Assembly: GCA_963555755.3 (NCBI GenBank)
Contig: OY820905.2
Location: 1,920,001 to 1,984,000 of the forward strand
Length of the DNA: 64,000 nucleotides
Origin: Nitrospirales bacterium
GTDB taxonomy: Bacteria > Nitrospirota > Nitrospiria > Nitrospirales > UBA8639
Reading direction: 5' to 3'
Shown: positions 36,958 to 37,200 of the stretch, piece by piece
How positions within the stretch are numbered: the first letter of the stretch is position 1
Layout of the letters: the number at the start of each line of letters is the position of its first letter
The notes under the pieces: generated by a model
Databases searched by the model: none
Told to the model about the DNA's origin: nothing
Seen by the model: only the letters and a program-made list of their open reading frames with translations
Made by a program: the position numbers and the translations under genes

Positions 36958-37200
36958 CGCTCTGTCTCCCAACCTTGTTGATACGGGCTTGGTGTCCCAG
37001 GCAACCGTTCGGGTTCATCAGAGAAAGGGCATGACGACCTGCGCTGAGTCACGGGCTGATTCCCATAGGGCAAACGGTCTATCATGCCAGGATTCACAAT
37101 ACCGTGAGGGTACAGCCTTTTCCCTACGTTGGCTATGCCCTCTTCAGACAAGAGGCAGCTCGTGTGAGTTGGACTACAACCCTTCCTTGCATTATACAAG
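35987..37200 (-). mobile_element. IS110-family element (IS621-like), CT core, no TIR/TSD beyond the core
   Basis: Boundaries defined by empty sites at 8924-8937 and 46102-46115; core AG at 35985-35986 and 37199-37200. Confidence 0.92.
36958..37185 (-). ncRNA. Predicted IS110 bridge RNA
   Basis: Target loop GUUUGCCCU/hairpin/GACUCAG and donor loop ACGGUUGC/hairpin/ACAAG, each closed by stems, match the target and the circle junction. Confidence 0.85.

Follow-up and report, generated by a model that had tools for sequence, protein, structure and literature searches.

The window analysed here, a stretch of 64,000 nucleotides from the genome of a Nitrospirales bacterium, carries on its minus strand an intact IS110 element of the IS621 group, which is inserted in a copy of a dispersed host repeat (Table 1). 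The element has a non-coding left end, which is longer (243 nt) than that of IS621, and a recombinase gene. The catalytic residues D13, E57, D99, D102 and S237 are intact, and they align onto D11, E60, D102, D105 and S241 of IS621 (given in PMC11208158). The only PDB relatives of the recombinase were ISCro4 (IS622; 9t56, E 6e-37), the best match, which shares the recombinase family and the bridge layout, and IS621 (8wt6, E 5e-35), from which our recombinase is distant. Unlike that of IS621, the right end lies wholly in the coding sequence, where it codes for the C-terminal LDFNHGC. A beta-clamp motif in this LDF was considered and dropped, because LD is dictated by the -35 box; moreover, the residues do not fit Q-L-x-L-F. 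The layout of the IS1111 group (seekRNA) does not apply, since the coding sequence reaches the right core and there is no non-coding region downstream.

Table 1. Features of the element, its predicted RNA and its insertion site (window positions).
Feature	Position	Strand	Basis or detail
Predicted host promoter of sigma70 type, TTGAGA-18-TATAAT, directed towards the element	37401..37430	-	Kept in the IS-free orthologous spacers L221 and L222
Host repeat, left inverted end (GGGAATGTTCAAAAAA)	37208..37223	-	Repeat comparison
Left target GCATGCC	37201..37207	-	12/12 left junctions
IS621-group IS110 element, 1216 bp counting both CT cores	35985..37200	-	Same ends in 11/11 complete copies
Left CT core	37199..37200	-	Sequence and copy comparison
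Right donor TGTAT (37198-37194) overlapping -10 box TATAAT (37196-37191)	37191..37198	-	Sequence
Predicted bridge RNA	36958..37190	-	Start inferred from the junction promoter
Target-binding loop (TBL)	37028..37088	-	Stem 37088-37076 / 37039-37028
TBL stem motifs GGCATGAT and GTCATGCC	37088-37081 and 37035-37028	-	Present as first described
LTG GTTTGCCCT	37075-37067	-	
TBL hairpin	37066-37051	-	
RTG GACTCAG	37050-37044	-	
TBL handshake CG	37043-37042	-	
Donor-binding loop (DBL)	36960..37023	-	Closing CCCG 37013-37010 / TGGG 36971-36968
LDG ACGGTTGC	37008-37001	-	
DBL inner stem	36998-36985	-	
RDG AT[CA]ACAAG, 9 nt, discontinuous	36982-36974	-	
DBL handshake GT	36973-36972	-	
Bridge recombinase gene, 324 aa	35983..36957	-	PF01548 and PF02371
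Right end inside coding sequence: -35 box TTGACT 36005-36000, left donor ACGGTTG 35993-35987, CT core 35986-35985	35985..36005	-	
Right target GAGTC, gives GA of the stop codon	35980..35984	-	12/12 right junctions
Host repeat, right inverted end	35947..35962	+	Repeat comparison

A search of the host genome with the element gave 13 matches and, with this query, no further IS110. They comprise 11 two-ended copies, one copy that has lost its right end (C1:2149272) and a 3' fragment (C1:1572761). One of the 11 complete copies is 1210 bp long, and five genomic copies encode identical proteins. All 12 left junctions read GCATGCC-CT-TGTAT (37207-37194 in the window), all 12 right junctions read ACGGTTG-CT-GAGTC (35993-35980), and CT is present at each end of the 11 complete copies. 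The queF-ppd spacer is about 300 bp long and has neither repeat nor IS in both of the readable same-genus genomes; other queF-ppd loci were left out, the third being cut off, the fourth having no ppd match in the stretch and the fifth carrying other inserted DNA. The closest named carriers of related elements are Nitrospirota assemblies. A bias in orientation relative to replication (11/13 head-on versus 36:36 at empty sites, post hoc p 0.02-0.03) was not upheld: it was absent in three multi-copy relatives (5/9, 5/9 and 1/6, from coarse skew profiles), and no clear direction is reported for IS110 in PMC3971601.

A preliminary description, made from the sequence alone, had read the left end as a bridge RNA of the IS621 layout, with left and right target guides (LTG and RTG) in one loop, left and right donor guides (LDG and RDG) in another and a CT core. 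Every IS621-group feature that can be tested on sequence is present, and the motifs GTTTGCCCT, GACTCAG, ACGGTTGC and ACAAG (36978-36974) had all been placed correctly on the minus strand. Some details need revision. The left guide is there, and the 7/9 match once assigned to it overstates the pairing, because guide column 1 is G in 66 of the 67 guide sets described below; the effective match is 6 nt, namely the informative TGCCCT at positions 4-9, while position 2 is a G:U wobble and position 3 a mismatch. The left guide has two mismatches to its own target, which counts against guide-directed choice. The donor loop had been thought to be closed by aacc/ggtt, which is not so, the conserved closing stem being CCCG/TGGG. 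ACAAG likewise exists as described and is part of a longer, discontinuous guide, whose form AT-bulge-RCAAG recurs in 62/67 sets. The 5' part of the predicted RNA is about 100 nt long, and the left end exceeds that of most relatives by about 60 nt (243 versus a median of 183). Folding gave no support from the single sequence, which was not above shuffles (z -0.64), and Rfam gave no match at E up to 1, so that the case rests on comparison.

For this comparison, 207 loci were gathered, and 128 were kept whose gene was full and whose two ends were present; the 79 dropped had no right end (47), partial genes (18), no left end (11) or a short flank (3). To define the ends, the -35/donor pattern and the CTTGT left tip were used, and the target guides were not. 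The 128 loci gave 105 distinct RNA regions, 100 usable ones and 67 distinct target-guide sets. It is evident that the guides covary with the targets in these sets, as the preliminary description required. The RTG matched its own target at 4.60 of the 5 non-core positions (2.16 when shuffled, maximum 2.76 in 2000 shuffles) and the LTG at 4.79 of 7 (3.19 when shuffled, maximum 3.55), the control having equal register freedom. The effect survived when one set was kept per distinct RTG (4.38 versus 1.69, n=32). The match rate was 88-99% at positions 10-14 and 73-91% at positions 3-7, and positions 1 (21%) and 2 (43%) are weakly used across the clade, from which we conclude that, compared with IS621, this clade reads less of the left target and more of the right one. 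PMC11208160 had already noted longer right guides. Poor fits were seen for the left targets of two close relatives (L002, 4/7; L109, 3/7), for the right target of L045 (2/5) and for L140.

The handshake bases match the non-cognate DNA, as PMC11208158 describes. In the TBL, the first of these bases is able to pair with donor position 7 in 64/67 sets and with target position 7 in 1/67; in the DBL, the first is able to pair with target position 7 in 63/67 (five A:T and two T:A changes among them) and with donor position 7 in 0/67. The LDG corresponds to the left donor plus C with 0-1 mismatch in 66/67 sets; covariation with the donor is only weakly tested, because the donor varies little. Double changes were found in 16 of the 19 consensus stem pairs among 43 relatives, a number reached by 0/500 shuffles and by none of the slid controls. 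A covariance model, restricted to 43 relatives below 65% identity, matched 37092-36963 with 91.2 bits (E 1.3e-21), and its strong scores in the genome were exactly the 12 left ends. A weak second match of the model at 37285-37175 (16.8 bits), which comes from a resemblance between the left tip and the RDG strand, was treated as chance. All shuffle controls overstate significance, because the relatives are kin. The guide-like matches might be put down to chance similarity in a non-coding spacer, as each motif is short and the lone fold is unremarkable, yet the covariation, the handshake pattern, the compensated stems and the independent match of the covariance model refute this reading, and we give it practically no weight.

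Within the genome, all 13 insertion sites share one common target, so the other copies, whose sites the preliminary description had proposed to check, sit at the same site without exception. The exact 14-mer GCATGCC-CT-GAGTC has 72 empty occurrences in the genome, and a guide-perfect version has none. By inspection, all 72 empty sites lie just within the left end of an inverted-repeat-bounded element of about 146 bp, a family with about 317 related loci; the window copy has an internal deletion in its right half. Of the 185 empty-type CCTGAG..CGAAGG hairpin modules, 68 are of the target variant, and none of the remaining 117 had a matching element junction. The chance that 12 picks all fall in the target variant is about 1e-5, assuming random hairpin modules and independent insertions. 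The element had been described as aimed at the 'TGCCCTGAG' palindromic repeat family; a repeat is indeed targeted, and the target is narrower than this family, being the hairpin module with the exact 14-mer. The LTG, the RTG and the TBL handshake bases show no change across the 12 left ends compared, among which no reprogrammed target guides were found. LDG and RDG are intact in 11 of these left ends, and one copy has altered donor guides. Thus, this element is found only at one 14-bp repeat site, and it is highly probable that its left end makes a two-loop bridge RNA guiding the recombinase there.

It is conceivable, though on balance unlikely, that a DNA feature of the repeat, either its long terminal stem or the core-spanning CCCT...AGGG hairpin, provides a second gate beside the RNA pairing, which would make up for the imperfect left guide and would add to guidance by the bridge RNA rather than exclude it. 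The left guide offers only six informative matches, every filled site is within a hairpin module, two sites one mismatch away from the guide-perfect 14-mer are empty while two-mismatch sites are used, and a preprint on ISPpu10 reports a gate formed by a stem-loop in the target (10.64898/2026.03.19.712850). However, the hairpin of the module has little stability (-1.8 to -2.9 kcal/mol), and much of the pattern follows simply from numbers, there being more repeat sites (72) than alternative ones. Moreover, the targets reconstructed for 65 relatives fold hardly better than the flank controls (mean z -0.54 versus -0.18; z below -2 in 8/65 targets versus 5/60 controls), so that hairpin targets, and a gate of the ISPpu10 kind, are not supported as a family-wide trait.

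A different history, in which one or a few insertions took place and the IS-bearing repeat then spread as a composite unit (through gene conversion between repeats or a transposase working on their inverted ends), would make the 13 sites non-independent as RNA-guided events. In its favour, the inverted ends of the repeat resemble those of transposons, the related loci number about 317, and most filled repeats keep both ends, 1.27-1.44 kb apart. Against such spread, the flanking repeat halves differ (extra internal modules, another left end at C1:3222249, the deletion in the window copy), and this variety mirrors that of the empty sites; among the longest ORFs between paired ends, no other transposase gene was recognised by inspection. 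Related elements of other assemblies (L031 and L108) are in the same module, and the family-wide covariation would be left unexplained. We therefore regard composite spread as very improbable, and insertion guided by the bridge RNA remains our preferred reading.

Several further observations concern the repeats. A second repeat of about 75 bp (beginning CTGTTGAATATTTCA), seen at 37285-37224 on the minus strand of the window, adjoins the left end of target repeats at 56/72 empty and 9/12 filled sites, and this upstream module thus gives no sign of a repeat-subtype preference. More members of the target repeat family are at 46086-46232, 8788-8953, 10199-10356 and 62226-62339 of the window, and those at 46102 (+) and 8937 (-) are exact targets, unused. 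The inverted-repeat-bounded family bears additional nested hairpin modules, and no autonomous transposase with these ends was recognised. A comparison with ERIC gave as its best result a weak match (41 bp, 80%, E 6) to unannotated E. coli DNA. The CTGAG..GAAGG module is the target in 13 of 65 relatives, and others are aimed at other dispersed repeats (L004/L034, L109, L157, L196 and L206; GAGTTC-CT-GAGCC, CCTAACC-CT-CTCCC and CCTCCC-CT-TACAAAGGGGAGG). In copy G000:C1:343993-344116, a 6-nt deletion takes out the 5' strand of the donor-loop closing stem, and the recombinase gene is intact.

When the two ends are joined, they give a sigma70 promoter, TTGACT-17-TATAAT, predicted from sequence only; in the inserted state, the -35 box is opposite GTCTTT instead. 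The predicted host promoter upstream of the element is a possible source of read-through RNA. This near-consensus sigma70 sequence has a GC hairpin and T-run at most about 25 nt behind it (37430-37350, minus strand), which also occur in two same-genus genomes (L221 and L222), have no Rfam match and could possibly serve as an attenuator or a short RNA. For IS621, a pathway of read-through, circle and junction promoter is known (PMC11208160; PMC13626964), and a preprint argues that the circle is single-stranded and made by copy-out (10.64898/2026.08.31.748434). By extension, weak read-through from the host promoter would supply the first RNA and enzyme, and the element would circularise at the CT cores, rebuilding the promoter that would then drive the bridge RNA. 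The donor loop would pair with ACGGTTG-CT-TGTAT and the target loop with bottom-strand TGCCCT and top-strand CTGAGTC, and strand exchange at the CT cores would be the work of a recombinase tetramer. The handshakes (TBL CG with donor T6-G7; DBL G with target C7) may favour strand exchange toward insertion. Insertion would split the promoter and let the target GA complete the transposase stop codon, and the repeat would offer about 70 more intergenic landing sites. No RE-LE joint was present in the assembled contigs of 8/8 runs, contigs being prone to drop rare forms; the element is present in the contigs of two RNA runs, which cannot show transcription. One perfect donor 14-mer without IS flanks is located at G000:C1:735341; it is probably a chance occurrence, and possibly a substrate for donor-target rearrangement.

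The reading frame of the recombinase crosses the -35 box and the left donor, and ends CAC GGT TGC TGA, so that the stop (35985-35983) is made of the core T and the target GA. The gene has no stop within the element, and cloning therefore requires an added stop codon. By contrast, 79 of the 128 loci use the TGA within the -35 box as their stop. The stop is completed by the target in 11/128 loci, with GA in 11/11, compared with GA in 39/113 internal-stop loci, and in four loci the frame continues further into the flank. The C-terminus is H[GS]C in 63 of the 69 closest protein clusters (65-98% identity, compared as proteins), so this ending is a lineage trait. In a circle, the frame would extend by 81 codons through the RNA region to 405 aa, with a stop that overlaps its own start. 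Selection for an open frame across the left end was unsupported (1.8 neutral stops expected, P0 0.16, no codon-position pattern): the frame is open in 6/8 distinct target-completed left ends, closed in the two most distant (L045 and L142), and open in 29/93 internal-stop left ends too. The C-terminus could be a state switch, in which the integrated gene makes 324 aa and the stop-less circle reads through the bridge-RNA region to 405 aa, but we find this rather doubtful. If true, such a switch would couple the activity of the enzyme, or the folding of the RNA, to the circular form, fix the first two positions of the right guide throughout the lineage and penalise off-target insertions. No account of a target-completed stop in a bridge recombinase was found in the literature searched (mostly open-access, without ISfinder). 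IS1547 and IS1110 belong to the IS110/IS900 family. Their transposase stops, like those of IS870, ISMt1 and IS1239, likewise come from flanking or target DNA, and IS870 and ISMt1 use CTAG targets (PMC13630536), whereas here the two target bases of the stop are the first two that the RNA specifies.

Bridge layout, repeat targeting and long right guides are already published for this family. IS621 of E. coli, with a bridge RNA of 177 nt, shares with our element the LE-recombinase-RE layout, the CT cores, the right donor TGTAT, the junction sigma70 promoter, the two loops with their four guides, the discontinuous RDG and the DEDD plus Ser residues, and the DBL handshake G-U is identical to G166/U167 of IS621. 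Both elements are inserted in a palindromic repeat, but the guides and the repeat differ. Our element has Watson-Crick ACAAG where IS621 has GCAAG, and a full 7-nt RTG, which was engineered into IS621 to raise insertion, is natural here. ISCro4 is 88% identical to IS621 (10.1101/2025.05.14.653916), while our element comes from a separate clade. ISPpu10 and ISPpu9 are IS110 elements that also enter a multicopy intergenic repeat. In the data of Durrant 2024 (PMC11208160, supplementary files 4 and 5), the IS621-like clade has rows with the same donor-loop design, and one row of the covariation input has a related hairpin target, CGTCCTGAGCCTGTCGAAGG; five strings from the LTG, right end and target of our element had 0 matches among the supplement rows listed. 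The literature searched for IS110 in Nitrospira (mostly open-access, without ISfinder) contained no description of this element. The understanding of bridge recombination is unchanged by this element. As a natural case of RNA-guided choice of target it is clean: a single near-complete genome holds 13 filled and 72 empty sites of identical sequence. Its clade is distant from the IS621 and ISCro4 tools. The ISCro4 study screened 72 orthologues (10.1101/2025.05.14.653916), and our element is a reasonable candidate for such screens, because the 7-nt RTG and the exchange-favouring handshake that were engineered into IS621 occur naturally in it.

The operon downstream (35913-29650, minus strand) encodes two TPP-enzyme halves, a class-V aminotransferase, an NTP transferase and a CDP-alcohol phosphatidyltransferase, and from its gene content looks like one for phosphonate-lipid biosynthesis; the repeat and the IS separate it from its likely promoter. 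Elsewhere in the window, a 792-aa ORF (42289-44667, plus strand) has a DruA-like domain (PF14236) fused to a DDE transposase (PF01609), and another repeat, present in 45 copies and finishing in ...GGGAAGGCATA, may represent the terminus of a PF14236/PF01609-type element. Two small ORFs at 41409-42005 (minus strand) resemble a toxin-antitoxin pair of the HigB/HigA type.
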